Source: Pyrinomonadaceae bacterium (GTDB lineage: Bacteria; Acidobacteriota; Blastocatellia; Pyrinomonadales; Pyrinomonadaceae). From it: a DNA stretch of 50,312 bases. Where the stretch lies: NCBI GenBank assembly GCA_035696765.1, contig DASSEB010000456.1:1-50312 (forward strand), in the 5' to 3' direction. The translations under genes and the position numbers were made by a program. Below the pieces are notes generated by a model. The model was not told where the DNA came from. It was given only the letters and a program-made list of their open reading frames with translations, and searched no databases. Within the stretch, counting starts at the first letter, position 1, and each line of letters starts with the position of its first letter. Below, one piece after another: positions 18,774-32,384 of this stretch.

Positions 18774-20480
18774 ATGTCTGAAGCTCAAAAAGCCCAACTC
18801 GACCGCTTCGGCGTCGCCGCTGCGTTGCAGGAGATCGCGCAGTTGATGGAGTTGAAGGGCGGTCAATTTCGTTTCAAAGCAAAAGCCTACAACGCAGGCG
18901 CCCGCGCGATTCAAGGCGTCGCCAATCTCGATCAGCTCGTCAAAGAAGATCGTCTCACGACGCTACCACGCATCGGCGACGCACTCGCTTCTCAAATCAA
19001 GCAACTCTATCTCACTGGCGAGTCTTCAGTTTTGAACGGACTGCGCAAAGAGTTTCCGGCCGGCGTGGTCGAACTTTCAACTGTACCGGGATTGAGCATC
19101 GAGAAAATCAAGCAACTCAACGAACTGGGAATCAGTTCCATCGCGCAGCTCAAGGCCGCCGCCGAAACCGGCCGCCTGCAACAGCTAAAAGGCTTTGGAC
19201 CAAAAACTGAGGAGCGACTGCTCACCCAGATCGCGAACCCAGTCAAGAAAACGAAGCGGCGCCTGCATCTTCATCACGCGTGGAGCACTGCGGATCAGGC
19301 GATTGAGTATCTCAAAACGATCGACGGAGTCGTCGACGTTAGCGTTGCCGGTTCGTTGCGTCGTTGGGAAGAGACGATTGGGATCGTCGATCTGGTTGCG
19401 AGTTCGAAAAAGCCGGCCGCAGTTGTAGAACAGTTCCTGCGCTTTCCGCTCATCTTGTCGAGCCAGTCGGATGGTCCAAACGAGTGTGTCGCGCAGTTCG
19501 CCGACGGCGCGCCGGTGTCGCTTACGGTGGTGACGCCGAAGGAGTTTGCCGTGTCGCTTTTTGTTAGGACGGGATCGGAAGCGCACGTCGAAAAAGTAAT
19601 GGAGCAGGCGGCGCGGAAGAAGAAAGGTTTGGCGCGTTCGCCGCGCAGCGAAGAAGAGATCTACAACCACCTCGGCATGGCTTACATCCCGCCGGAGTTG
19701 CGCGAGAACGAAGGTGAGATTGAAGCGGCACTCGCGAAAAAACTGCCTGACGATCTGGTGACTGAGGCGGACGTGAAAGGCATGGTCCATTGCCACACGA
19801 CTTATTCCGACGGCATTCACACGCTCGAAGCGATGGTGCGCGGCGCTGAAGAGATGGGAATGAAGTACATCACGATCACGGACCATTCGCCCACGGCGAT
19901 CTATGCGAACGGGCTGAAGGTGGACAGGTTGAGACGCCAGTGGGACGAGATCGACGAGGTGCAGGAAAAAGTCTCGATCAAAATCCTGCGCGGTACTGAA
20001 TCGGATATCGTTGCTGACGGACATCTCGACTATCCGGATGATGTGCTCGAGAAGTTTGACGTGATCGTGGCCAGCATTCACGCGCGTTACAAAATGGATT
20101 CGGCGAAGATGACGGAGCGGATCACGAAGGCGATGCGTTATCCAGTGTTCAAAATTTGGGGACACGGGCTGGGACGATTGCTGCAACGGCGGCCGCCGTT
20201 TGAGTGTGACGTTGAGCGCATTCTCGATGTGATTGCGGAGTCGCAGGCGGCGATCGAGATCAATGGCGATCCGTACCGGCTCGACCTGGAGCCGCGCTGG
20301 GTGCGCGAGGCGCGCAAGAGGAAGATCAAGTTTGTCATTTCAACCGACGCGCATTCAGTGAAAGCGATGAACAATGTGAAGTATGGGGTCGCGATGGCGC
20401 GCCGCGGTTGGGTCAGGCGCAAAGAAGTTCTCAACACCCTCAATACGGCCGCGTTCGCGAAAGCCGTCAAACCAGTCTAA
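18774..20480 (+). CDS. polX: Family-X DNA polymerase with C-terminal PHP domain (PolX)
   Basis: HhH-rich N-terminus, pol-beta-type GSLRRWEETIGIVDLV. PHP motifs VHCHTTYSDG, ITDHS, LRGTESD, ASIHA and ISTDAHS. Confidence 0.85.
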   Translation: MSEAQKAQLDRFGVAAALQEIAQLMELKGGQFRFKAKAYNAGARAIQGVANLDQLVKEDRLTTLPRIGDALASQIKQLYLTGESSVLNGLRKEFPAGVVELSTVPGLSIEKIKQLNELGISSIAQLKAAAETGRLQQLKGFGPKTEERLLTQIANPVKKTKRRLHLHHAWSTADQAIEYLKTIDGVVDVSVAGSLRRWEETIGIVDLVASSKKPAAVVEQFLRFPLILSSQSDGPNECVAQFADGAPVSLTVVTPKEFAVSLFVRTGSEAHVEKVMEQAARKKKGLARSPRSEEEIYNHLGMAYIPPELRENEGEIEAALAKKLPDDLVTEADVKGMVHCHTTYSDGIHTLEAMVRGAEEMGMKYITITDHSPTAIYANGLKVDRLRRQWDEIDEVQEKVSIKILRGTESDIVADGHLDYPDDVLEKFDVIVASIHARYKMDSAKMTERITKAMRYPVFKIWGHGLGRLLQRRPPFECDVERILDVIAESQAAIEINGDPYRLDLEPRWVREARKRKIKFVISTDAHSVKAMNNVKYGVAMARRGWVRRKEVLNTLNTAAFAKAVKPV

Positions 20481-20554
20481 CCACGGATTACACGGATTTA
20501 GGACGGATTAGTGCTTCTCCGCGCTAATCCGGCCTTGATCCGTGTAATCTGTGG
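20481..20554. repeat. Family-B palindromic repeat, full copy
   Basis: CCACGGATTACACGGATTTAGGACGGATTAG ... CTAATCCGGCCTTGATCCGTGTAATCTGTGG. Starts directly after the polX TAA and contains the stop plus the last ~10 codons of the minus-strand ORF ending at 20524. Confidence 0.85.
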
Positions 20555-21288
20555 TCCGGTTTTACGTTGCATGTGGGCGGCAGGTTGGGATTCTTCGCTT
20601 CGTAGTTCTTGATCTCCTGCTCGAATTTGGTCTTTGCCTTTTCTCGTTCGTCATCGCCAAACAAAGCAGCATCGCCCTCCTCGCGAGTTACTTGTGCGCG
20701 GAGACGCCGCGCAGCGTTTAGGATCTTCTGACGCAGATCGCGATCTAGATCGATGATGTAAACGGCTGTCGTCCGACCGGCAGGCACCAACGTTCGAAAC
20801 GGGATCCCGGCGCGCTCCAGTCCATTTGCAAGCGCAACAAAATTTGACGCGCGCCTTCGTAGGCGTAACGTGTAAAGATCTGCTGAACCCTTCGGTCGCG
20901 GGTGAAAGTAGATCACGTACTTCTGTTCAGCATCGCGTCCCATGCGCGCGAGAACATAGCGAAGTGTCGGCCGATCACTTTTAACCCGCAGCATGACGGA
21001 GTGTTCGGCGCCATCGCTCCAGGATCCCAGTGCTTTGAATGCGCGAATTCTGGTCCTCACGACGCAACTCAAGTTGATCGCTCTCGCGCGTAACTGTACC
21101 TCTTCGGGCGAGTTCATCCCCTTGATCGCTTCTTCGAGTTTCAAATCAGTCTTTGTGTTCGGACTGACAAACCCGTAGTTGAACGACTTCTCCGACTGCT
21201 GCGCGGAGATCGCGGTGGTCCAACCGAGCAGCAGGACAAGTAAAAAGGATCGTGACGCCGAGAATCGATTTGTCATAGAATGGCGCAA
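20524..21288 (-). CDS. Secreted hypothetical protein
   Basis: Signal peptide ...SFLLVLLLGWTTAISAQQ. Protein-like composition, no recognisable motif. The C-terminal residues are encoded by the B-repeat. Confidence 0.55.
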   Translation of the reverse strand: MRHSMTNRFSASRSFLLVLLLGWTTAISAQQSEKSFNYGFVSPNTKTDLKLEEAIKGMNSPEEVQLRARAINLSCVVRTRIRAFKALGSWSDGAEHSVMLRVKSDRPTLRYVLARMGRDAEQKYVIYFHPRPKGSADLYTLRLRRRASNFVALANGLERAGIPFRTLVPAGRTTAVYIIDLDRDLRQKILNAARRLRAQVTREEGDAALFGDDEREKAKTKFEQEIKNYEAKNPNLPPTCNVKPDHRLHGSRPD

Positions 21289-21316: not shown

Positions 21317-22063
21317 ATGCAACGAAGAACCCTCACCGAACTCGCCAATAATCCTGACTTAATTTCAGGTATTTACAACTATTGCGATCGTTGGTGTGAA
21401 CGGTGTCCTTTAACCTCACGTTGTCTGGTCTATGCGACCGAGCAGGAAGACGACGATTCACCCGAGAGCCGCGACGTTCGCAATGAAGCATTCTGGCGAA
21501 AACTCGGTGCTATTTTTCTTGAAACGCGCGAAATGGTTGTTGAGTGGGCCAGAGAGGCACGCGTCGATCTTACCGGGCCTGCGGAGGGAGAAGAAAAACG
21601 ATCTCACCGGAGAAGACAACTCATCGACAATCATCCGCTCGCGAAATCCGGCAAGAAGTACGCGAATGCAGCCAGTGACTGGTTTCGCGAGTTTGATCAA
21701 ACGATTGAGATCAGCGATCTACGCGCCACGGAAAACGAACGCGAACACCTGGAAGATGCGCGCGAAGTGATTCAATGGTATCAGTATCAAATCGCGGTCA
21801 AGACAATACGGGCGCTCTCAGGCCGGCGAGAGGAAGAAGATCCGGAATTGGCTGATTTTCCGAAGGATTCCGACGGCTCGGCAAAGGTCGCGCTGATTGG
21901 TATCGATCGCTCGATTGCAGCGTGGCGGCTGATGCAACTATCGTTGCCCGAGCGCGCCGACTCGATCGTGACGTTGATTTTACAGCTCGAACGTTTGCGT
22001 TATCGTTTGGAAAACGGGTTTCCGCAGGCGCGACGTTTTATCCGGCCTGGATTCGATGGATAA
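21317..22063 (+). CDS. Hypothetical cytoplasmic protein with N-terminal Cys cluster C-x3-C-x2-C-x5-C
   Basis: ATG at 21317 preceded by AAGGAG (21303..21308). Motif CDRWCERCPLTSRC lies at nt 21383..21424. The rest is predicted helical and acidic. Confidence 0.6.
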   Translation: MQRRTLTELANNPDLISGIYNYCDRWCERCPLTSRCLVYATEQEDDDSPESRDVRNEAFWRKLGAIFLETREMVVEWAREARVDLTGPAEGEEKRSHRRRQLIDNHPLAKSGKKYANAASDWFREFDQTIEISDLRATENEREHLEDAREVIQWYQYQIAVKTIRALSGRREEEDPELADFPKDSDGSAKVALIGIDRSIAAWRLMQLSLPERADSIVTLILQLERLRYRLENGFPQARRFIRPGFDG

Positions 22064-22070
22064 ACAAAAA

Positions 22071-22101
22071 CCGCGGATGAACACGGATTATTAACAGATG
22101 G
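22071..22101. repeat. Family-B repeat fragment (CCGCGGATGAACACGGATTATTAACAGATGG)
   Basis: Three CGGAT/CAGAT units. The HIT gene ATG (22098) lies in the last unit. Confidence 0.5.
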
Positions 22102-22526
22102 ATGAGAATTGTCTGTTTTGTCGAATTGTGTCTGGCGAGGTGCCGGCAACTGTAGTTTACGAAGATCAGCAGTCGCTGGCATTCCTCGATCATCGTCCCC
22201 TGTTTCACGGTCACACTTTACTGGTGCCGCGAGAACATGTGGAAACACTCGGCGATCTGCCGGCGCCGCTCGTCGGTCCTTATTTCGAGGCTGCGCAACT
22301 GTTGAGTCGTGTAGTTCAAGCAGCGCTCGATGCCGAAGGAACTTTTGTCGCGATGAATAATCGTGTGAGTCAGAGTGTGCCGCATTTGCACGTGCACGTA
22401 GTGCCGCGACGAAAGAAGGACGGCTTGAAAGGCTTTTTCTGGCCGCGCACAAAATACAAAGGCGAAGAAGAAATGAAAGCAGTGCAAAGCAAGATCGTTG
22501 CAGCGCTCAAGAAAATCAAGAAGTAA
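22098..22526 (+). CDS. HIT-family (histidine triad) nucleotide hydrolase/transferase
   Basis: CLFCRIV N-terminus and histidine triad HLHVHVVP. Confidence 0.9.
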   Translation: MDENCLFCRIVSGEVPATVVYEDQQSLAFLDHRPLFHGHTLLVPREHVETLGDLPAPLVGPYFEAAQLLSRVVQAALDAEGTFVAMNNRVSQSVPHLHVHVVPRRKKDGLKGFFWPRTKYKGEEEMKAVQSKIVAALKKIKK

Positions 22527-22558
22527 AAAATTATCGTCGAAATAAAACACAAAAAAAG

Positions 22559-22587
22559 TTGCTCTAAAAATCCTGTAGGAGTATAAA
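22559..22587 (+). promoter_or_regulatory. Candidate sigma-70 promoter of the ncRNA unit
   Basis: TTGCTC (22559..22564), 17-nt spacer, TATAAA (22582..22587). Confidence 0.35.
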
Positions 22588-22594
22588 CCCCCTG

Positions 22595-23088
22595 TCGCGA
22601 GGGTTGCGGCCTTCGAGACCGAACAAGGGATCGGCAATCGGTGCGGTGACGCCCGAACGAGAGAAGAGACAGGCGGCTGTTGATTCTATTGACGCCCTGA
22701 TCGAAGCCGAAAGGCTTAGCTAGAGAAGGTTGCGAGACTTTCTCGAGCCATTCGAATAAAAACGAATGGCACCCGGAGGCAAGGACCCGCCGAAGGGAGC
22801 AAAGCGGCTCAACGAAAGTTGAGCTTCGTTGCCGGAGCGTAACCGGCGGTGGAGGAAAAGCCACCACAACAAAAACCTAAAGGCACCGTGTTCTTCGGAA
22901 CGCGAGGATTGTGAAAATGATTCGTGTGCTGACCGGCGATTGACTGACCGCCAGTTGATCATCGGGATACAAATTGGCGACTTGAGTGTGTACATGCTCT
23001 TGTTGCCATCTTATAGGTAGCTTCGGCTAACTATAGGAAAACGGATTGCGCTGCTTTCAGCTTGCTGGATGCAGCGCATTTCGTTTTT
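22595..23088 (+). ncRNA. Candidate large structured non-coding RNA of unknown class (about 490 nt; 5' end approximate)
   Basis: 680-bp gap without a protein-like ORF. At least eight strong hairpins, four capped by GAAA or UUCG tetraloops. Ends in an intrinsic terminator. No universal RNase P, tmRNA or SRP motifs found by eye. Confidence 0.5.
23047..23088 (+). terminator. Intrinsic terminator closing the ncRNA unit
   Basis: TGCGCTGC (23047..23054) / GCAGCGCA (23071..23078) with inner CAG-CTTG-CTG helix, followed by TTTCGTTTTT. Confidence 0.65.
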
Positions 23089-23205
23089 AAATCCGCCCGT
23101 TCCAATCTCTGTTCGTCCGTGGCCCGATTCCGAAATTTTTGTTAGATTACCCGCTTCCAAAAACAGAAAAGTTTCTCCCCGCATTGCTTCCACTTCTTTA
23201 AGGAG

Positions 23206-24015
23206 ATGACCCAGATGACTGAAGCACGAATGCAAGAGGTACCCGAATACAAACCAGGTACGTTCTGTTGGGTTGAGTTGGGAACAATTGATAGTCCGGC
23301 CGCCAAAACTTTTTACACCCAACTCTTCGGCTGGGAATATGAAGACCATCCAATGGGGCCCGGCATGGTCTATACAATGCTCAAGCTCAACGGCAAAGAC
23401 GTCGGTGCACTTTACGAATTGATGCCGGAGATGAAGGCGCAGGGAGTTCCACCTCACTGGCTTAGTTACGTCTCCGTCAACAATGCTGACGAGACGGCGG
23501 AAAAGGCGAGAGCTGCAGGCGCGACGCTAATGAAAGAACCGTTCGACGTTATGACTGAGGGCCGCATGGCCGTGATCCAGGATCCCACTGGCGCTGTCTT
23601 TGCGATTTGGCAAGCTATAAATCACAAAGGATCCGCGGCGCGCATGGTTCCGAACTCCGCTTGCTGGAACGAACTAGGCACAAACGATACAAAGAAAGCA
23701 GGAGAGTTTTATTCGAACGTCTTTGGTTGGTCCCAGGAAGGCTTCGGGGCGAGTTCGATCGAATACACAGTTTTCAAAAACGGCGATCAGGGCGTGGGCG
23801 GCATGTATCAGATCACGCCGGAAATGGGACCGATACCGCCACACTGGCTCGTTTACTTTGCCGTCGACGATTGTGATGCGAAGGTCCAGCAAGCGACTGA
23901 GCTTGGGGCCAAAGTAATGAAGCCGGCAGAGGACATTCCGGGAGTCGGACGCTTTGCAATCCTGATCGATCCGCAGGGGGCGGCGTTCGCACTGCTCAAA
24001 CCGCAGCCACAATAG
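23206..24015 (+). CDS. VOC-superfamily protein (glyoxalase/bleomycin-resistance fold), two tandem domains
   Basis: Internal duplication: FCWVELGT...PPHWLSYVSV and ACWNELGT...PPHWLVYFAV. AAGGAG lies upstream of the ATG. Confidence 0.8.
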   Translation: MTQMTEARMQEVPEYKPGTFCWVELGTIDSPAAKTFYTQLFGWEYEDHPMGPGMVYTMLKLNGKDVGALYELMPEMKAQGVPPHWLSYVSVNNADETAEKARAAGATLMKEPFDVMTEGRMAVIQDPTGAVFAIWQAINHKGSAARMVPNSACWNELGTNDTKKAGEFYSNVFGWSQEGFGASSIEYTVFKNGDQGVGGMYQITPEMGPIPPHWLVYFAVDDCDAKVQQATELGAKVMKPAEDIPGVGRFAILIDPQGAAFALLKPQPQ

Positions 24016-24999: not shown

Positions 25000-25287
25000 C
25001 TAAATCAAATCCTGAACTCCTCGAACCTGCGCCGCGAGATAAGCTTCGATTGCAAACTCGACGAGCGGTGCTTCATCCGGTGAGTAGTACTCGGGTAGAC
25101 GGCGCAATTGACTGATCTGAGGAGACAGCAACCAGAAGCCACCGATGTCAGCTCCGAATTGATTGTGGACCGCGAGCTCGAGCGCAGTGCCATGCACGAC
25201 GCGCAAGTACTTCGCCGAAGCAGCATCGAGATTGACCGTGCAATCGGTCAGCGCAAACCCGACAAACTCCACCTCACGCTGCGGCAT
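25000..25287 (-). CDS. Hypothetical 95-aa acidic protein translationally coupled to lexA
   Basis: Its ATG (25287) lies 14 nt inside the lexA 3' end. Protein-like composition, no TM segment, no known motif. Competing ORFs in other frames look like shadows. Confidence 0.45.
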   Translation of the reverse strand: MPQREVEFVGFALTDCTVNLDAASAKYLRVVHGTALELAVHNQFGADIGGFWLLSPQISQLRRLPEYYSPDEAPLVEFAIEAYLAAQVRGVQDLI

Positions 25288-25894
25288 ATTTACGAATTAA
25301 ACCTCTCACGACACCCTGGATCTGAATCCGTTCCGGCGTCTTGATGAAGAGTGGTTTGAACTGCGGGTTGGCCGGCTCGAGACGGATAAACTCAGGTTCG
25401 CGATAAAACTTCTTCACCGTCGCATAATTGCCGTCGATCAGAGCGACAACCACCTGGCCGTTTTCGGCAGTCTGTTGTGACGCAACGATGAGGACGTCGC
25501 CGTCCTCAATGTTTTCCTCGATCATCGAATCCCCACGCACACGCAGGGCGAAAGTGCGGCCGCGTCCCTGCATGTCTTTCGGCACAGAGACGGTGTCGTG
25601 GCGGAGAATTGCTTCAATTGGCTGGCCGGCAGCTACTGTACCCAGCAAAGGAATCTCGGTGTCATCGTCGTCATCACCACCCTTTTGTTGCACGATCTGA
25701 ATCCCCCGGCTGACGTTCGGAATGCGTTTGATTAATCCCTCCCGCTCCAGGGCCACAAGGATGGCGTGAACGCTGGCAGGCGATTTCATCTGAAACTGCG
25801 CCCCGATCTCCGCAATGGTGGGTGGTTCGTGGTTCGACTCGATAACGCGCCGGATGAACTCATAAACTCGTCTTTGTTTGGCCGTGACTGGCAT
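25274..25894 (-). CDS. lexA: LexA repressor (S24 peptidase)
   Basis: N-terminal wHTH (LTAKQRRVYEFI...PPTIAEIG), cleavage-site region, catalytic Ser in VRGDSMIE and Lys in ATVKKF. ATG at 25894 (206 aa, GGGGA upstream) preferred over TTG at 25936. Confidence 0.9.
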   Translation of the reverse strand: MPVTAKQRRVYEFIRRVIESNHEPPTIAEIGAQFQMKSPASVHAILVALEREGLIKRIPNVSRGIQIVQQKGGDDDDDTEIPLLGTVAAGQPIEAILRHDTVSVPKDMQGRGRTFALRVRGDSMIEENIEDGDVLIVASQQTAENGQVVVALIDGNYATVKKFYREPEFIRLEPANPQFKPLFIKTPERIQIQGVVRGLIRKYAAA

Positions 25895-25948
25895 AAACGT
25901 CCCCTTTACCTGCTCGAAAATAATTTTCGTTGACAACCGAAAATCTGG

Positions 25949-26165: not shown

Positions 26166-26825
26166 CTACTTGATGACCTTCGCGAGTTTTTTGAGGTCGT
26201 CGATAAAGAGTCGCAGCTCGAGATGGCGCGTTTCATCATCGGGAGCACGAAGGATTGAGGAGGGATGTACGGTGGCCATGACGTAGGGTGCAAGGGTTGA
26301 GGGAATAAATTCACCGCGTTGTTTTGTCACGCGAAACTGTGGTCCGAGCAGAGACTGGGCAGCTGTCGCGCCGAGCGCAACAATTACGTCGGGTTTGACG
26401 ACGGCAATCTCGGCTTCGAGCCAGGGACGGCACGCGCCGATTTCCGCTGAGTTGGGTTTCTTGTGGATCCGGCGTTTGCCGCGCGGTTCCCATTTGAAAT
26501 GTTTGACAACATTGGTGACGTAGGTTTGTTCGCGATCGATGCCGGCTTCTTCGAGGGCGTTATCCAGCAAGCGTCCGGCGGGGCCGACGAAAGGTTTGCC
26601 GGTCAGATCTTCTTCGTTACCCGGTTGCTCGCCGACGAACATGACTTTTACTCGCCGGGCGCCTTCGCCGAAAACGGTTTGCGTTCCTTTTTTCCAAAGG
26701 TCGCAGGCACGGCAATCGGCTGCGGCGCTTCTGAGCGACGAGAGCGTTGGTCGCGGTGGAATTAAAGCCTGTGCCGCGCTGTCGGAAGATTTGCGTCTCG
26801 GCATTGTGATCGATTTTCTGGGCAA
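26166..26825 (-). CDS. Uracil-DNA glycosylase, family 4 (Fe-S type)
   Basis: Motif A VGEQPGNEED (GExPG), motif B VHPSSILR, Cys ligands CRACDLW and GACRPW. The start is TTG at 26825 or ATG at 26804. Confidence 0.85.
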   Translation of the reverse strand: MPRKSITMPRRKSSDSAAQALIPPRPTLSSLRSAAADCRACDLWKKGTQTVFGEGARRVKVMFVGEQPGNEEDLTGKPFVGPAGRLLDNALEEAGIDREQTYVTNVVKHFKWEPRGKRRIHKKPNSAEIGACRPWLEAEIAVVKPDVIVALGATAAQSLLGPQFRVTKQRGEFIPSTLAPYVMATVHPSSILRAPDDETRHLELRLFIDDLKKLAKVIK

Positions 26826-26828
26826 ATG

Positions 26829-26864
26829 TCCTGCGTTTCTCTGCTGTCCGAGAGAAACGCAGGA
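26829..26864. promoter_or_regulatory. Perfect 14-bp-arm palindrome in the 60-bp UDG / imuA divergent spacer
   Basis: TCCTGCGTTTCTCT (26829..26842), 8-nt spacer, AGAGAAACGCAGGA (26851..26864). Confidence 0.5.
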
Positions 26865-26885
26865 TGTGCAGAGAGAATTCTAAAC

Positions 26886-27665
26886 ATGAAAGCAGCATTC
26901 TCAAAAGCAGAACTCGAGTCTGAAATCGCCAGTCGTTTTGGCGATGTATTCAAGGTCCATGAAAAGTCTGTGGTCGAGACTCTCGCCACAGGCATTCCGG
27001 AGATCGACGCGTTAACAGGCGGCCTGCCGCGTGGAGCTATCAGTGAAATCTTTGGACCAGCGTCGTCGGGCCGTACCAGTCTGATGTATTCAATGCTTGC
27101 TTATGCCACCACGCACGAAGAGACGTGTGCCCTCGTTGATACGAACGATGCCTTTGCCCCCGCGGCCGCCGCTGCCGCCGAGATAGATTTCGATCGTTTG
27201 CTTTGGGTCCGCGGCGCCGGCGATCTCGAGCACGCTTTTAAAGCCACGGATCTCTTGTTACATGCCGGCGGGTTTGGCCTGGTGATACTCGATATAGGCG
27301 ACGTCGCGGGAAAGGACACGCACCGGATCATTTCGTCATGGTGGTATCGCTTTCGCCATACGGTGGAAGATAGACCAACAGTATTAACGGTAATTTCAGA
27401 AGAAGCCTGTACCAAGTCATGTGCTGCACTTACGCTGGGGTTGAATGGAGTAGCGGAATGGTCACGAGCTAATGCCGAGTCGCGCGCGGCAGTTCAGTTC
27501 GTAAGACCAGCCAATGTGTTGCCGATGCGAAAGCAAATGCCCGTCAACCGGGCACCGCTTACCCACGGAAATCTGTTGCGCCGCAACACGGTAAAAGTTA
27601 ATCGCCAGCGTCCCCTTTCTCCCTCGCTGAATGAAAGCCAATTCCAGGCTCACCAGCACATTTAA
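26886..27665 (+). CDS. imuA: ImuA-type RecA-fold protein of the SOS mutagenesis cassette
   Basis: RecA/SulA-like core with degenerate P-loop GPASSGRTS. Sits immediately upstream of imuB-dnaE2. ATG at 26886 preferred over 26826, which would translate the palindrome. Confidence 0.7.
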   Translation: MKAAFSKAELESEIASRFGDVFKVHEKSVVETLATGIPEIDALTGGLPRGAISEIFGPASSGRTSLMYSMLAYATTHEETCALVDTNDAFAPAAAAAAEIDFDRLLWVRGAGDLEHAFKATDLLLHAGGFGLVILDIGDVAGKDTHRIISSWWYRFRHTVEDRPTVLTVISEEACTKSCAALTLGLNGVAEWSRANAESRAAVQFVRPANVLPMRKQMPVNRAPLTHGNLLRRNTVKVNRQRPLSPSLNESQFQAHQHI

Positions 27666-27699
27666 TCTTCGGAAAATTTTCGTCAATTTTCGATTTATC

Positions 27700-29061
27700 G
27701 TGTTTGCGTGTATTCATGCACAACAAATTCCGGCCAACCTCTCGCTGCCGGAGTTTGCCTATAACTTTTCACCCGTGGTGGAGCAGGCACGGGGCGGCAC
27801 AGTCGTCATAGACGTGGACGGGTGTGAGCTTTTATTTGGCTCCGCTTATCAACTCGCAAATGAAATCGCTTCGCGAGCAAAAAAATCCCGGATCCATGGC
27901 GGCCTGGAAAGCACAGTCAGTATCGCCATCGCCGCAAATCCCGACGCCGCCATTCACGCCGCCACTCGCCTGCCAGGAGTCACCTTCGTCTCACCCGGCG
28001 AAGAGCTAACTTGCCTCGGAGAGTTTCCCATCGACCACCTCGACTATTCGCTGGTTAGCATCGAGAAAAAAGTTGCGGATGAGATCCTCGAGACACTAAA
28101 GCTCTGGGGCATTCGCACCTTTGCCGATTTCGCCGCACTTCCCGTCGCCGGTGTTTCCGAGCGTTTGGGACAGGCCGGAGTGAGACTGCAACAACTCGCC
28201 GCGGGTAAAACCGAGCGACACTTAAAGGTCAAACAGCCCGCGCCTGTTTTTATGTATTCGATTGAGATCGAACACGGCCTTACCGAACTCGAGCCCCTCT
28301 CATTTGTTTTGGCGCCCCTCCTGCATCAACTCTGCGCCGCTTTGAATGCCTATGCACTGGCTACGAACGAATTGTGTGTGGTGATGCAACTGGAAGATCA
28401 CACCACACATGAACGCAAGCTGACTCTGCCTCACCCAATGCGCGACCACAAAGTGTTTCTGAAATTGTTATTGCTCGACACGGAGATGCACCCGCCCGCG
28501 GCAGCCGTAAAGTCAGTTTCAATTACCTGTGAGCCGGTGAAGCCGCGCGTGTTGCAGAACGGATTGTTTGTGCCGCTCGCTCCGGCGCCCGACAAACTCG
28601 AACTCACACTCGCGCGACTGGCGAAACTCGTCGGCGAGCAAAACATCGGTTCCCCAGCCTTGCTCGATACGCATCGTCCCGACGCGTTCACCTTGAAACG
28701 TTTCACGCTCACAACTAAATCGGACTCGCGTAAGCGGCGAAGAGGAGTTTCGCAGTTTGCGATTCGCAATTCGCAATTGGCCATGGGGTTCCGGATGTTC
28801 CGTCCGCCGCTGCGCGCGATAGTTCAAGCCGACCAGGGTTGGCCCGCGCAGATCAGCGCGTGGAGTAAGCAACGGAGTGTTTATGGGAAAGTGGTCAACC
28901 TCGCTGGTCCATGGAGAACTATGGGTGATTGGTGGCGCGACGATCGTTGGGCGCGAGACGAGTGGGACGTGACGATCGAGCGCTCCGGCCAGCAAGCCGT
29001 GTATCGCGTTTATCGAGAGCTGAAAACCGATACCTGGTTTGTGGAAGGGAACTACGATTGA
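27700..29061 (+). CDS. imuB: ImuB, catalytically inactive Y-family polymerase-like protein
   Basis: Typical ImuB N-terminus (M)FACIHAQQ from the GTG at 27700. Y-family palm/fingers-like layout without the DxD acidic motif. Positioned between imuA and dnaE2. Confidence 0.75.
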   Translation: MFACIHAQQIPANLSLPEFAYNFSPVVEQARGGTVVIDVDGCELLFGSAYQLANEIASRAKKSRIHGGLESTVSIAIAANPDAAIHAATRLPGVTFVSPGEELTCLGEFPIDHLDYSLVSIEKKVADEILETLKLWGIRTFADFAALPVAGVSERLGQAGVRLQQLAAGKTERHLKVKQPAPVFMYSIEIEHGLTELEPLSFVLAPLLHQLCAALNAYALATNELCVVMQLEDHTTHERKLTLPHPMRDHKVFLKLLLLDTEMHPPAAAVKSVSITCEPVKPRVLQNGLFVPLAPAPDKLELTLARLAKLVGEQNIGSPALLDTHRPDAFTLKRFTLTTKSDSRKRRRGVSQFAIRNSQLAMGFRMFRPPLRAIVQADQGWPAQISAWSKQRSVYGKVVNLAGPWRTMGDWWRDDRWARDEWDVTIERSGQQAVYRVYRELKTDTWFVEGNYD

Positions 29062-29159: not shown

Positions 29160-32100
29160 ATGTCTACGTATGTTGAGCTGCACGCGCGGTCGGCTTTTAG
29201 TTTTTTAGAAGGCGCGTCTGTGCCTGAAGAATTGATTGCGGCCGGCGTTGAGTTGCAAATACCCGCGATGGCTTTGCTCGATCGCGATGGAGTTTATGGC
29301 GCGCCGCGGTTTCACCTCTCCGCCAAGAAGAATGACATCAAGGCCCACATCGGCGCCGAGATAAGCGTCCGGATTCCAAAAACCAAAGTTCAAAAATCTG
29401 CTGTTTGTTCGATTCCTGTTCTGGTGCAAGATCGTACCGGTTACCAGAATCTTTGTCGCCTGATCACGTTGATGAAACTGCGTGTACCCAAACACGCAAA
29501 ACCGGGTGAGTGTGTGGTCACCTCCGAAGAGTTCGCGGCGCATGCCGAAGGGTTGATCTGTTTGACCGGCGCATTTGATGGACCAGTTGCGACTGTGCTC
29601 AGCCCGAGAGACGCAGAGAACACAAACAACGCACAACGAATAACCGAGTGGCTGATCGATCTGTTTGGTAAAAACAACGTGTACGCCGAATTGCAGCGCC
29701 ACTTCGATCGCAACGAGGAAGCTCGCAATCATTTAGTGATTGAACTTGCACGCCGCAATCATCTGCCTTTACTCGCGACGAACGGCGTGTGTTACGCCAT
29801 CCCCGCGCGCCGTGAAGTGTCTGACGTCTTCACCTGCATTCGCAATCACGTGCGACTGGAAACTGCCGGACGCCTGCTGGCGCAAAACTCAGAGCGGTAT
29901 CTGAAGTCAGGCGCCACGATGGAAAAGCTCTTTGCGGATCTGCCGGAAGCAATCGCAAATACCTCTGAACTTTCATCCCGATTGAAGTTCACGCTCGAAG
30001 ATCTCGGGTACGAGTTTCCGAAATATCCGACACCGCCGGGCGAAACAATGACTTCTCTCTTGCGCAAGATCACGGAAGCAGGCGCACGCTCGCGCTATAC
30101 GGGCGCGAATGATGCACCCACTTACGACGAGGCGCGCCCGCAGCTCGAACGCGAGTTGAAGCTGATCGAAAAACTCAAGCTCGAAGGTTATTTTCTGATC
30201 GTTTGGGACATCGTCCAGTTTTGTCGCAAACAAGGCATCCTGATCCAGGGACGCGGATCGGCGGCAAACAGCGCGGTCTGTTATTCATTGGGGATTACAG
30301 CCGTAGATCCAATCGGCATGGACTTGCTGTTCGAACGGTTCCTTTCTGAAGAACGAGGCGAATGGCCCGACATCGATCTCGACCTGCCAAGCGGAGATCA
30401 ACGTGAGAAAGCCATTCAATACGTTTACGAACGGTACGGAAAACTCGGCGCGGCCATGACCGCGAACGTTATTACCTATCGAGGACGCTCGGCTGCGCGT
30501 GAAGTCGGCAAGGCGTTGGATTTCGATGAAGAAACGCTTTCACGACTGGCCGCCCTCGTCCACACGTGGGAATGGAAAGATCCAAACGACTCCAGCGAGC
30601 GCCAGTTTCGCGACGCGGGCCTCGATCTGCGCCATCCGCGCATCAGGAAATTCTTTCAGCTTTATCAAATGGTGCAGGACCTGCCTCGCCACCTGGGCCA
30701 GCATTCGGGCGGAATGGTGATCTGCCAGGGGCAGCTCGATTCGATCGTTCCGCTCGAGCCTGCGGCCATGCCCGGCCGTGTAGTGGTCCAATGGGACAAA
30801 GAGGATTGCGCGGACCTGGGATTGATCAAAGTAGACTTACTGGGGCTTGGAATGATGGCGGTCCTGGAAGATTCGATCACATTGATTCGCGATTCCTATG
30901 GCGAAGAAGTTGATCTGGCCCATCTGCCGCAAAACGACGCGGCAGTTTATGAGGCGCTGCAAAATGCCGACACGATCGGAATGTTCCAGGTTGAAAGCCG
31001 GGCGCAGATGTCATGCCTGCCGCGACTGCGACCGGCGACTTTTTACGACATCGTGGTCCAGGTGGCTATCATTCGTCCCGGCCCGATCGTCGGAAACATG
31101 GTCCATCCCTATCTGAAACGCCGGCAGGGCAGAGAGCAGGTGACTTACGCGCACCCGCTTTTGGAGCCAATCCTGAAACGAACACTTGGCGTGCCGCTGT
31201 TTCAAGAGCAGTTGTTGAGGATGGCGATGGTGTGTGCCGGTTTTACCGGTGGCGAAGCGGAAGAGTTGCGCCGCGCTTTTGGCTTCAAACGTTCGGAAGC
31301 GCGCATGAAAGCGATTGAAGTAAAACTGCGGCAAGGGCTGACGCGAAATGGAGTCACCGGAAAAACTCAGGAAGAGATCGTGCAGGCCATCAGCTCGTTT
31401 GCGCTTTACGGTTTTCCGGAATCGCACGCCGCAAGTTTTGCCCTGATAGCTTATGCGAGTGCCTATCTGAAATGTAATTACCTGGCGGCGTTTACGGCGG
31501 CGATACTCAACAACCAGCCGATGGGGTTTTATCAACCTTTCACGCTCATCAAAGATGCGCAGCGCCATGGATTGAAGGTCCTGCCGATCGATGTTACCTG
31601 CTCGGATTGGTTGTGCACGCTCGAGAAGGAAGACGGCGCGCCCGTGCTCCGTCTGGGACTGAGATACGCGAAGGGTTTGAGCCAGCAGTCGGGAGAGGCG
31701 ATTGTTCGCGCGCGACTCGCACGCGGTTTCGCCGGTATTGATGACTTGCGTAATCGCGTGCCTGAACTGCGCAAAGATGAAATGAGAAAGTTGGCCGCGA
31801 TCGGTGCGTTGAACTTTATTCAGGATGTTGGTGCGCCAAAGTCGGGAGGCAGAAAAACAAAGACGCATCGTCGCGACGCGTTGTGGCAAGTGGAACGTGT
31901 GACGCGTGCGCCGGGGAAACTCTATGAGGAGTTGCTCGAGCAGGACGGCAATTCACCTTTGCAGCAGATGGGATTACTGGAGCGAGTGGACGCGGATTTT
32001 CGTGGGACGGGACTGACGATTGGGAAGCACCCGGTTGCTTATTATCGAAGCGAGCTGGACAAGCTCAAGGCGTTGAAAGCGATCGATATCCGCCGCCTGC

Positions 32101-32384
32101 GCGATGGCGCCACCGTGCGTGTAGCCGGCTGGGTGATTGTTCGCCAGCGGCCGGGCACGGCAAAAGGATTTATGTTTTTGACTCTCGAAGACGAGACAGG
32201 AGTGAGCAACATAATAGTTACGCCGCAACTATTCGAGCAGTACCGGCTCGAGCTGGTCGATCATCCGTTCCTCTTGATCGAGGGAGTATTGCAAAACCAG
32301 GATAACGTGATCTCAGTGAAGGCGCGCCACGTCCAGCCACTTTCCTTTACCGTCACCAGCGCCCCCTCCCACGACTTTCATTAG
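29160..32384 (+). CDS. dnaE2: Error-prone DNA polymerase III alpha-like subunit DnaE2
   Basis: 1074 aa. PHP N-terminus (YVELHARSAFSFLEGAS), pol III alpha core (GRGSAANSAVCYSLGIT, DIDLD, FQVESR), OB-fold C-terminus. Cassette context with imuA and imuB. Confidence 0.9.
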   Translation: MSTYVELHARSAFSFLEGASVPEELIAAGVELQIPAMALLDRDGVYGAPRFHLSAKKNDIKAHIGAEISVRIPKTKVQKSAVCSIPVLVQDRTGYQNLCRLITLMKLRVPKHAKPGECVVTSEEFAAHAEGLICLTGAFDGPVATVLSPRDAENTNNAQRITEWLIDLFGKNNVYAELQRHFDRNEEARNHLVIELARRNHLPLLATNGVCYAIPARREVSDVFTCIRNHVRLETAGRLLAQNSERYLKSGATMEKLFADLPEAIANTSELSSRLKFTLEDLGYEFPKYPTPPGETMTSLLRKITEAGARSRYTGANDAPTYDEARPQLERELKLIEKLKLEGYFLIVWDIVQFCRKQGILIQGRGSAANSAVCYSLGITAVDPIGMDLLFERFLSEERGEWPDIDLDLPSGDQREKAIQYVYERYGKLGAAMTANVITYRGRSAAREVGKALDFDEETLSRLAALVHTWEWKDPNDSSERQFRDAGLDLRHPRIRKFFQLYQMVQDLPRHLGQHSGGMVICQGQLDSIVPLEPAAMPGRVVVQWDKEDCADLGLIKVDLLGLGMMAVLEDSITLIRDSYGEEVDLAHLPQNDAAVYEALQNADTIGMFQVESRAQMSCLPRLRPATFYDIVVQVAIIRPGPIVGNMVHPYLKRRQGREQVTYAHPLLEPILKRTLGVPLFQEQLLRMAMVCAGFTGGEAEELRRAFGFKRSEARMKAIEVKLRQGLTRNGVTGKTQEEIVQAISSFALYGFPESHAASFALIAYASAYLKCNYLAAFTAAILNNQPMGFYQPFTLIKDAQRHGLKVLPIDVTCSDWLCTLEKEDGAPVLRLGLRYAKGLSQQSGEAIVRARLARGFAGIDDLRNRVPELRKDEMRKLAAIGALNFIQDVGAPKSGGRKTKTHRRDALWQVERVTRAPGKLYEELLEQDGNSPLQQMGLLERVDADFRGTGLTIGKHPVAYYRSELDKLKALKAIDIRRLRDGATVRVAGWVIVRQRPGTAKGFMFLTLEDETGVSNIIVTPQLFEQYRLELVDHPFLLIEGVLQNQDNVISVKARHVQPLSFTVTSAPSHDFH

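Follow-up and report, generated by a model that had tools for sequence, protein, structure and literature searches.

Large, intricately folded bacterial RNAs are rare, and the cases characterised in the past, among them RNase P RNA, tmRNA, group I and II introns, OLE, ROOL and GOLLD, have been ribozymes, cores of ribonucleoproteins (RNPs) or self-assembling RNA particles. For example, OLE RNA (ornate, large, extremophilic; RF01071) is ~600 nucleotides (nt) long, very abundant and the core of an RNP (PMC3413148, PMC9723947). ROOL and GOLLD form homo-oligomeric RNA-only particles in which loop–loop contacts are important (PMC12286853), and the raiA motif RNA has been reported to be very abundant (PMC12968392). 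Here, we describe an element of ~495 nt, in the size class of OLE, ROOL and GOLLD, that lies between a HIT and a VOC gene in a 50,312-nt stretch of DNA (the window) from a Pyrinomonadaceae bacterium (Acidobacteriota, Blastocatellia; assembly GCA_035696765.1, contig DASSEB010000456.1, positions 1 to 50,312 of the forward strand). A preliminary description, made from the sequence of the window, had proposed an independently transcribed, structured non-coding RNA (ncRNA) of unknown class at this site, and the analyses reported below support that proposal, with none of them contradicting it. The element combines a conserved promoter, an intrinsic terminator, non-coding sequence and a covarying structure, the generic marks of an independent ncRNA gene, and we put at about 95% the probability that the gene is real and conserved and encodes a structured ncRNA of a family not yet catalogued.

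The source phylum, Acidobacteriota, is dominant in soil and poorly studied. No lineage-specific large ncRNA was found described for it: full-text literature searches and look-ups in the main discovery papers (unpublished and supplementary motif lists lying outside this scope) turned up no large ncRNA from Acidobacteria, Blastocatellia or Pyrinomonadaceae. Cultured members of the family include Pyrinomonas and Blastocatella.

Conservation, promoter and coding potential of the HIT–VOC gap

The HIT and VOC genes, whose identities are backed by Pfam, are separated by 679 base pairs (bp), and within this gap conservation runs from 22539 to 23089, that is, from an upstream element through the whole terminator, in 62 loci adjoining HIT. 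The boundaries of the gene were set by this extent of conservation. Nucleotide identity to the window, taken over 48 loci, is higher in the RNA than in the HIT coding sequence (82.9% versus 73.5%). The gap had been described as lacking any protein-like open reading frame (ORF), and the homologues bear this out: the five ORFs that overlap the RNA are each open in just 5–19 of 58 homologues, their length changes are not multiples of three in 29–45 of the 58, and no small ORF accounts for the conservation. The region is thus non-coding. The plus strand from 22590 to 23090 has a minimum free energy of −216.9 kcal/mol versus −162.4 ± 6.0 kcal/mol for dinucleotide-preserving shuffles (n = 100; z = −9.0), of which 0/100 fold as stably, while the minus strand reaches z = −3.9 only, and many G-U pairs would become A-C mismatches if the opposite strand were the RNA.

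Public assemblies carry a called gene of 165 amino acids (aa), without a Pfam match, antisense to the 3′ end of HIT and the 5′ half of the RNA (window 22370–22867, minus strand; L001:6273–6770, minus strand). As its ORF is open in just 5/58 homologues, we regard the call as spurious and as caused by the unannotated RNA gene; the antisense annotation ought to give way to an ncRNA feature.

The sigma-70-type promoter (TTGCTC, 17 nt, TATAAA) lies where the preliminary description had placed it. In alignment A2, which holds 59 homologous sequences, the −35 TTG and the −10 TATAA are invariant and the 17-nt spacer is fixed in length and free to vary in sequence. Conserved hexamers around a variable spacer of fixed length are the signature of a promoter and not of an RNA. 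The promoter is absent from the output of a simple promoter scanner because that scanner demands T at the last −10 position. Upstream of it, the columns of an A-rich element are likewise invariant in A2, and across 1.41 Mb of related loci all 138 occurrences of the exact 12-mer AAAATAAAACAC lie at the RNA 5′ flank. Together with the adjoining A-tract this element resembles an UP element, although by its sequence it could equally be a regulator site.

Transcription would start at the invariant G at 22594, 7 nt past the −10 hexamer and the first base of helix P1, and would end in the terminator U-tract. The proposed unit of ~0.5 kb thus keeps its size, while its start moves from 22559, which belongs to the promoter, to about 22594. 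The intrinsic terminator that had been proposed is present, extends over 23041–23088 and shows covariation; its core was also listed by a terminator scan, and an A-rich strand upstream pairs with part of the U-tract (Table 1).

Table 1 Features of the RNA gene and its neighbours, with positions in the window. Fractions give the base pairs of a helix that show compensatory changes in the alignment of 114 non-redundant sequences.
Feature	Position	Strand	Description
A-rich upstream element	22539–22550	+	GAAATAAAACAC in the window, AAAATAAAACAC in relatives; about −45 to −56
A-tract	22551–22557		Adjoins the A-rich upstream element
Sigma-70-type promoter	22559–22587	+	−35 TTGCTC 22559–22564, 17-nt spacer, −10 TATAAA 22582–22587
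ncRNA	22594–23088	+	~495 nt; z = −9.0, covariation, no Rfam match
P1, 5′-terminal hairpin	22594–22619	+	3 + 7 bp, YNCG tetraloop (UACG, UGCG or CACG); 5/10
Domain 2	22620–22703	+	P2 (3/4) encloses a junction with P3, P4 (GUGA loop; 6/8) and P5 (GCGG loop; 6/8)
P5b loop	22673–22676	+	GCGG; putative loop–loop contact with CCGC of P18c (22948–22951, within ACCGC)
P6 hairpin	22704–22717	+	GAAA loop in 114/114; 4/5
Domain 4	22719–22800	+	P7 (weak; 0 compensatory pairs) encloses P8 (9 bp, 22723–22731 with 22736–22744, GNRA loop; 8/9), P9 (loop RAUAAAAA; 6/8) and P10 (loop NNAGGACCCG; 7/8)
P11 hairpin	22807–22824	+	GAAA or GCAA loop; 5/7
Domain 6	22828–22876	+	P12 (tentative) encloses P13 (loop NNCGUAA; 4/5) and P14 (GGUGG-AGGAAAAG-CCACC, 22848–22865; invariant)
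A/C-rich linker	22866–22880		3′ of P14
Domain 7	22881–22931	+	P15 (near-invariant, tentative) encloses P16 (UUCG, GCAA or GAAA loop; 5/7) and P17 (6/6)
P18, long hairpin	22933–22965	+	Conserved ACCGC loop; 8/12
P19 hairpin	22976–23007	+	6 + 6 bp, UU/UU internal loop, GUAC loop; 10/12
P20 hairpin	23010–23037	+	UUCG loop; 9/11; second expansion site
Intrinsic terminator T1–T3	23041–23088	+	10/18; core listed by terminator scan
PolX	18774–20480		PHP, HHH and pol-beta thumb
Hypothetical protein	20524–21288	−	No Pfam match; syntenic in closer relatives only
Hypothetical protein	21320–22063	+	No Pfam match; syntenic in closer relatives only; Cys-rich CxxC motifs near the N-terminus
HIT	22098–22526
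VOC	23206–24015
LexA	25274–25936	−
UDG	26166–26825	−
ImuA-like gene	26826–27665		RecA fold
476-aa gene	27631–29061		No Pfam match; possibly ImuB
DnaE2-like gene	29160–32384		Pol III alpha

Secondary structure and covariation

Searching for homologues and for covariation, as had been suggested, revealed strong conservation and compensatory substitutions in nearly all proposed helices. The unconstrained RNAalifold consensus has 96.9% of cells paired and 69 pairs with two-sided changes, versus 14–24 in slid controls. Some of its long-range helices were unsupported: one between GCCGAAG (22789–22795) and CUUCGGC in the P20 loop region was rejected for want of two-sided changes, and two of 2 bp each were rejected because their changes were one-sided or absent. 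In the curated structure these were swapped for the local helices P10 and P20, which covary, unlike the helices they replace, and P19 was extended, guided by mutual information and inspection of the alignment. The resulting 160 pairs have 95.0% of cells paired in A2, with 80 two-sided pairs versus 20–30 in slid controls, and 0/500 shuffles equal the observed value on any measure. In the 114 sequences that form the non-redundant set after a blastn near-identity threshold of 95.5%, 94.2% of cells are paired and 105 pairs show two-sided changes, versus 28–39 in slid controls.

The structure comprises ~20 helices in eleven consecutive domains, of which P1–P6, P8–P11, P13, P16–P20 and the terminator are well supported. 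P14 is 100% paired and never varies, so covariation speaks neither for nor against it. Seven of the eight hairpins named in the preliminary description recur in this structure, and those at 22704–22717, 22747–22770, 22807–22824, 22831–22847, 22887–22904 and 23012–23035 all show compensatory changes; the eighth, CGAGA-ctt-TCTCG (22733–22745), lacks support, and its bases form the 3′ strand of P8. That list had also left out the 5′ third of the RNA (22594–22703) and several multi-helix junctions. Similarly, the RNA is indeed rich in tetraloops, but the four GNRA/UUCG loops counted earlier become at least eight of the GNRA/UNCG types.

The loops of P1, P8, P11 and P16 exchange freely among GNRA and UNCG tetraloops. 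Other loops are sequence-specific, namely those of P6 (GAAA in 114/114), P4 (GUGA in 104/114), P18 (ACCGC), P10 (AGGACCCG) and P14 (AGGAAAAG). Length differences between homologues concentrate at two sites. In one clade (L078, L087, L040, L210, L258 and ~25 others; extracts of ~600 nt including flank) two extra hairpins of at least 46 nt are present at the P16/P17 junction, equivalent to window 22887–22925, and in L231, L179 and L176 insertions of 17–60 nt lie in or near the tip of P20, equivalent to window 23018–23029. Such expansions at helix tips are also seen in other structured RNAs.

A mutual-information scan for tertiary pairs was dominated by the phylogenetic split into two clades, and beyond the known helices it left P5b/P18c as the only lead. 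At least 4 complementary bases are present between these two loops in 114/114 sequences. In a clade of 10 sequences both loops have changed together (CGGU, ACCGA), with the register shifted by one and 4 bp kept, and in one intermediate sequence and in a clade with longer RNAs 5 bp are possible. A kissing interaction between P5b and P18c, to judge from these loop sequences, would bring the 5′ and 3′ halves of the RNA together. A scan for conserved complementary stretches returned many wobble-tolerant chance matches, and an 8-bp alternative pairing of GUUGCCGG with UUGGCGAC, which shows no two-sided changes, was not adopted. Dimerisation through a self-complementary P19 tetraloop was also considered and is a weak candidate because the loop, although GUAC (84 sequences) or GGCC (13) in 97/114, is GACG in the other 17; oligomerisation of the RNA is, on these loop sequences, speculative.

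Distribution, genomic context and evidence at the RNA level

The HIT protein of the window is encoded identically on 22 metagenome contigs whose intergenic region is almost identical to that of the window (same species). Scanning a genome collection with this protein returned 80 loci, nearly all from metagenome-assembled genomes (MAGs) labelled Pyrinomonadaceae, Blastocatellia or Acidobacteriota, and an nhmmer search with the window intergenic region, repeated as a profile re-search, found a strong plus-strand match just 3′ of HIT, with 13 exceptions. The 13 matchless loci have no other gene in common with the window and mostly carry labels of other taxa (e.g. Bryobacterales, Bryobacteraceae, Thermoleophilia), five being labelled Pyrinomonadaceae or Blastocatellia. 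Together with the near-identical same-species contigs, the HIT-scan loci give a full-length copy in 62 loci. A metagenome scan with a pattern of two motifs from invariant columns listed at least 120 loci, of which nhmmer confirms 117 as true copies, so that the genome and metagenome collections hold at least 149 full-length copies overall. The extracts are 553–626 nt long including ~60 nt of flank, which places the RNA itself at ~490–565 nt. As far as seen, and judged by these sequence searches, the family appears restricted to the Pyrinomonadaceae/Blastocatellia within the Acidobacteriota, and it is kept in many uncultured soil Pyrinomonadaceae. More than 100 non-redundant sequences are in hand, sufficient for R-scape, a covariance model and 3D modelling.

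No second copy was found in the 50-kb window, and most loci have a single syntenic copy. Tandem RNA genes are present at L218 (73–658 and 723–1207, minus strand) and L179 (1355–1967 and 2384–2457, minus strand); the L218 paralogues are 85% identical with compensatory differences, are separated by a 64-nt spacer and each have a promoter and terminator. In one MAG the RNA seems to lack 280 internal nt (L071:6635–6644), but this was rejected as a natural variant, the stretch being a string of N (masked sequence or a scaffold gap). At L197:1038–1116 a long hairpin just past the RNA terminator is matched below threshold by several models of animal miRNA precursors and is probably just a long inverted repeat.

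The gene order around the RNA is polX, two hypothetical genes, HIT, RNA, VOC, EamA, LexA and UDG (the last two on the minus strand), followed past UDG by an ImuA-like gene, a gene without a Pfam match and a DnaE2-like gene. It is kept through much of the family, and the synteny check that had been proposed found the order HIT–RNA–VOC conserved to the same extent, with HIT replaced in the longer-RNA clade. Inserts of up to 2 kb can separate the RNA from HIT or from VOC. In the longer-RNA clade HIT is replaced in some loci by a Tag 3-methyladenine glycosylase and a hybrid histidine kinase (Tag upstream of the RNA in this sister clade: L210:11991–12584) and in other loci by a divergently oriented TPR/thioredoxin-like gene, and in L210 and L240 a convergent M23 peptidase gene follows the RNA. 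The inserts, the replaced upstream gene, the convergent gene in L210/L240 and the tandem paralogues with their own promoters and terminators all argue for an independent gene. No reverse transcriptase, TnpB, IscB or IS110 recombinase gene is adjacent at the locus, in keeping with the preliminary description, nor is oapA; the neighbours are PolX, hypotheticals, HIT, VOC, EamA, LexA, UDG and the ImuA-like and DnaE2-like genes.

Many of these neighbours share a DNA-damage theme, in both clades (PolX, HIT, Ble-like VOC, LexA, UDG, ImuA/DnaE2; Tag), which we treat as a lead. Control of the RNA by LexA was considered and rejected: the LexA box of Acidobacterium type, which we take to be GTTCN7GTTC, shows no enrichment across the window (56 matches versus 57 expected) and does not occur in the RNA promoter.

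Evidence at the RNA level comes from two IMG/VR contigs that contain true fragments of the ncRNA. L137 (1–4124) encodes a maturation protein (PF03863), a coat-sized ORF and an RNA replicase beta chain (PF03431), and L100 (1–3474) a maturation protein, a coat-sized ORF and a truncated third ORF, a gene content that identifies both as genomes of Leviviricetes (single-stranded RNA phages). As Leviviricetes genomes have no DNA stage, both contigs must stem from RNA. Each carries the ncRNA fragment in sense orientation, joined to phage sequence: in L137 it occupies 202–390, with 200 nt of unrelated sequence on one side and the phage 5′ untranslated region on the other, and in L100 the truncated third ORF runs into the RNA at 314–2. 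Such joins may be chimeras with an abundant host RNA that arose in library preparation or assembly, or could reflect template switching by the phage RNA-dependent RNA polymerase, which, if true, would point to Pyrinomonadaceae as phage hosts. Whichever way they arose, they indicate, if indirectly and short of defining the transcript ends, that environmental RNA pools contain the plus-strand RNA, and the absence of a transcript, which would have spoken against the RNA, is not borne out. Further IMG/VR scans with three other conserved segments found no more true copies: two 14-base patterns gave chance matches only, and a 20-mer returned L100 again and one match that nhmmer does not confirm.

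Mode of action and relation to known RNAs

Screening against Rfam 15 (4227 families) gave no significant match to a known family. cmscan of the whole window at gathering thresholds returned zero matches; the region at E ≤ 10 with permissive filters returned just two chance matches, both inside the 3′ end of HIT, and six divergent homologues at E ≤ 5 gave zero matches within the RNA and chance matches in flanking hairpins only. The covariance models of OLE, ROOL, GOLLD, HEARO, raiA and the other catalogued large bacterial ncRNAs in this release are among those without a match. By Rfam 15 and the literature, this is a new RNA family without demonstrable relation to a known kind.

The same searches bear on whether the element might be a highly divergent or rearranged housekeeping RNA (RNase P RNA, tmRNA, 6S or the signal recognition particle RNA) that the Rfam models overlook. 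Size and promoter strength are similar, and on inspection GGAGGAAAAGCC is faintly like the RNase P element CR-I (GAGGAAAGUCC). However, the RNase P models (RF00010, RF00011) are unmatched in the window (gathering score and E ≤ 10) and in the six homologues (E ≤ 5), the consensus structure has no P1-type helix joining the 5′ and 3′ ends, and the P4 pseudoknot (GAGGAAAGUCC with ACAGAA..CCGGCUUA) finds no CCGGCUUA-like partner, GGAGGAAAAGCC being paired locally in P14. Similarly, ARAGORN found no tRNA or tmRNA in the window, Rfam gave no tmRNA match, a tRNA-like end is absent, the 3′ end being the terminator, and a candidate tag frame (GCC ACC ACA ACA AAA ACC UAA) was rejected because the alignment shows it broken by indels, or its stop lost, in several homologues. 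The absence of RNase P elements and of a tmRNA end or tag, noted before from the sequence, is thus confirmed. A 6S-type single long hairpin with a central bubble (~180 nt, RF00013) is also absent, eleven domains standing in its place, and no Rfam match was obtained. We consider a divergent housekeeping RNA very improbable. A cause of conservation other than RNA, be it a gene for a small protein, a mobile element or array of REP-like repeats, or a region that regulates at the DNA level, could appeal to the 165-aa opposite-strand ORF of the gene callers and to the ORFs of 39–165 aa that overlap the region, but it is already largely refuted: the ORFs are not kept open, frameshifting indels are common, the substitutions in helices are compensatory, there is one syntenic copy per locus and the only two true IMG/VR matches are both chimeras. 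A sponge RNA of the CsrB/RsmZ or CrcZ type, titrating a CsrA- or Hfq-like protein through GGA or (ARN)n motifs, would fit the strong promoter, the terminator and the tandem paralogues in some genomes, as for CsrB/C and RsmY/Z, and by eye there are conserved single-stranded GGA elements in the P10 loop AGGACCCG, the P14 loop AGGAAAAG and J20/T UAGGAAAACGGAU, and (ARN)3-like runs in the P9 loop AAUAAAAAC and the linker AACAAAAAC. These motifs amount to just a handful, however, and nearly every helix and junction is conserved and covarying, whereas sponge RNAs drift fast between their motifs, so this explanation appears improbable.

A further alternative concerns the downstream genes, whose linkage the preliminary description had played down: the VOC–EamA pair, or EamA alone, follows the RNA on the same strand in ~62 of the 66 loci that extend far enough downstream, including loci with a different upstream gene. 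The element could accordingly be a giant cis-regulatory leader of a VOC–EamA operon for detoxification and export, riboswitch-like or a protein- or toxin-sensing attenuator, with the terminator as its expression platform. A VOC/Ble-like enzyme with an EamA exporter is the kind of gene pair typically under riboswitches, a scan of the window found no sigma-70-like promoter between the terminator and VOC, and in VOC-less genomes the EamA ATG lies ~25 nt past the U-tract, with no room for a promoter. The 3′ strand of P15 (GUGCUG) also has 6-bp complementarity to the 3′ strand of the terminator (CAGCGC), a possible antiterminator, but this is the sole candidate and was not adopted, as its changes are one-sided only. 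Size also argues against a leader: to our knowledge no riboswitch comes near ~495 nt and ~20 helices, those known being several times smaller. A near-invariant promoter with an upstream element would be unusual for a riboswitch-controlled operon; the terminator is a long, conserved and self-contained unit; in L210 and L240 the RNA is detached from VOC–EamA by a convergent M23 peptidase gene that follows it directly; the tandem paralogues each have a promoter and terminator; and synteny throughout the region from polX to UDG means that the VOC–EamA linkage may be merely inherited. A cis-acting leader is therefore rather unlikely, but the tight linkage is reason to keep it, or a dual-function model, under consideration.

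We favour, with some reserve, a stable and probably abundant RNA that acts mainly in trans, a reading that the sequence features themselves suggest. It draws on the conserved strong promoter, the hairpin at +1, the partly paired U-tract, the covarying helices and invariant loops and junctions, as well as on the putative tertiary loop–loop contact, the expansions at helix tips and the paralogues in some genomes. RNAs with such features include ribozymes and RNP cores (OLE, tmRNA, RNase P). They also include RNA-only assemblies (ROOL, GOLLD; PMC12286853). In the mechanism that we propose, the RNA's own strong promoter (A-tract upstream element, TTGNNN-17-TATAA) would drive a transcript, probably highly expressed, with a hairpin at +1 and an extended intrinsic terminator, its U-tract partly paired, at the 3′ end. 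Contact between P5b and P18c would probably compact the fold, and the folded RNA may act in trans as the core of an RNP or as an RNA-only or catalytic particle, with a binding or active surface built from invariant elements, namely hairpin P14, the loop of P10 (AGGACCCG), the linker rich in A and C and the junction of P15 with P18 (GUGCUGACCGG). Some transcripts probably continue past the terminator, which would allow co-expression of VOC–EamA. The most specific form of this reading, a new ornate RNA class whose biochemical role is intrinsic, as a ribozyme or the core of a new RNP or RNA-only particle, and which is abundant in Pyrinomonadaceae, a lineage widespread in soil, and tied in function to its stress and DNA-damage neighbourhood, is a tentative possibility.

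Several observations weigh against a trans-acting, compactly folded RNA. The closing helices P7, P12 and P15 have no or little compensatory support (1/3 pairs in P12) and are tentative, the domains are mostly local, as beads on a string, and just one probable long-range contact is proposed, with essentially one evolutionary event behind it. The transcript itself is indicated by the phage joins, which may be library or assembly artefacts and even so show only that the RNA exists. The prevalence of VOC–EamA or EamA downstream belongs here too, as does L228, a VOC-less locus that looks as a cis-leader would: with the EamA ATG ~25 nt past the U-tract, read-through of the terminator must contribute to EamA expression there.

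Compared with described systems, the RNA is like OLE in being a large, ornate, multi-helix RNA with many invariant nucleotides, encoded by an independent gene and found in a single lineage. It differs in belonging to Acidobacteriota and not Firmicutes, in having no adjacent gene for an oapA/B/C-like membrane protein and in not matching the OLE model; abundance and a role as RNP core, known for OLE, are proposed features of this RNA. With ROOL and GOLLD it shares its size class and structural ornamentation, including a proposed kissing loop and a P19 tetraloop that is mostly self-complementary (GUAC/GGCC), but it has no association with prophages or tRNA genes, its proposed kissing loop would be intramolecular, and neither model matches. 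It resembles raiA as a highly conserved orphan, a structured ncRNA with a transcription unit of its own that lies upstream of a recurrent gene but is no proven cis-regulator, whereas raiA is ~200 nt long, is widespread in Firmicutes and Actinobacteria, has a different gene context and gives no model match. Sponges of the CrcZ/CsrB type resemble it in their multiple hairpins, strong promoter, Rho-independent terminator, paralogues in some genomes and A-rich or GGA loop motifs, but its helices and junctions are far more conserved and its repeated motifs few. RNase P RNA and tmRNA (350–450 nt) are comparable in size, strength of conservation and number of GNRA tetraloops, but every one of their defining elements tested is absent from this RNA.

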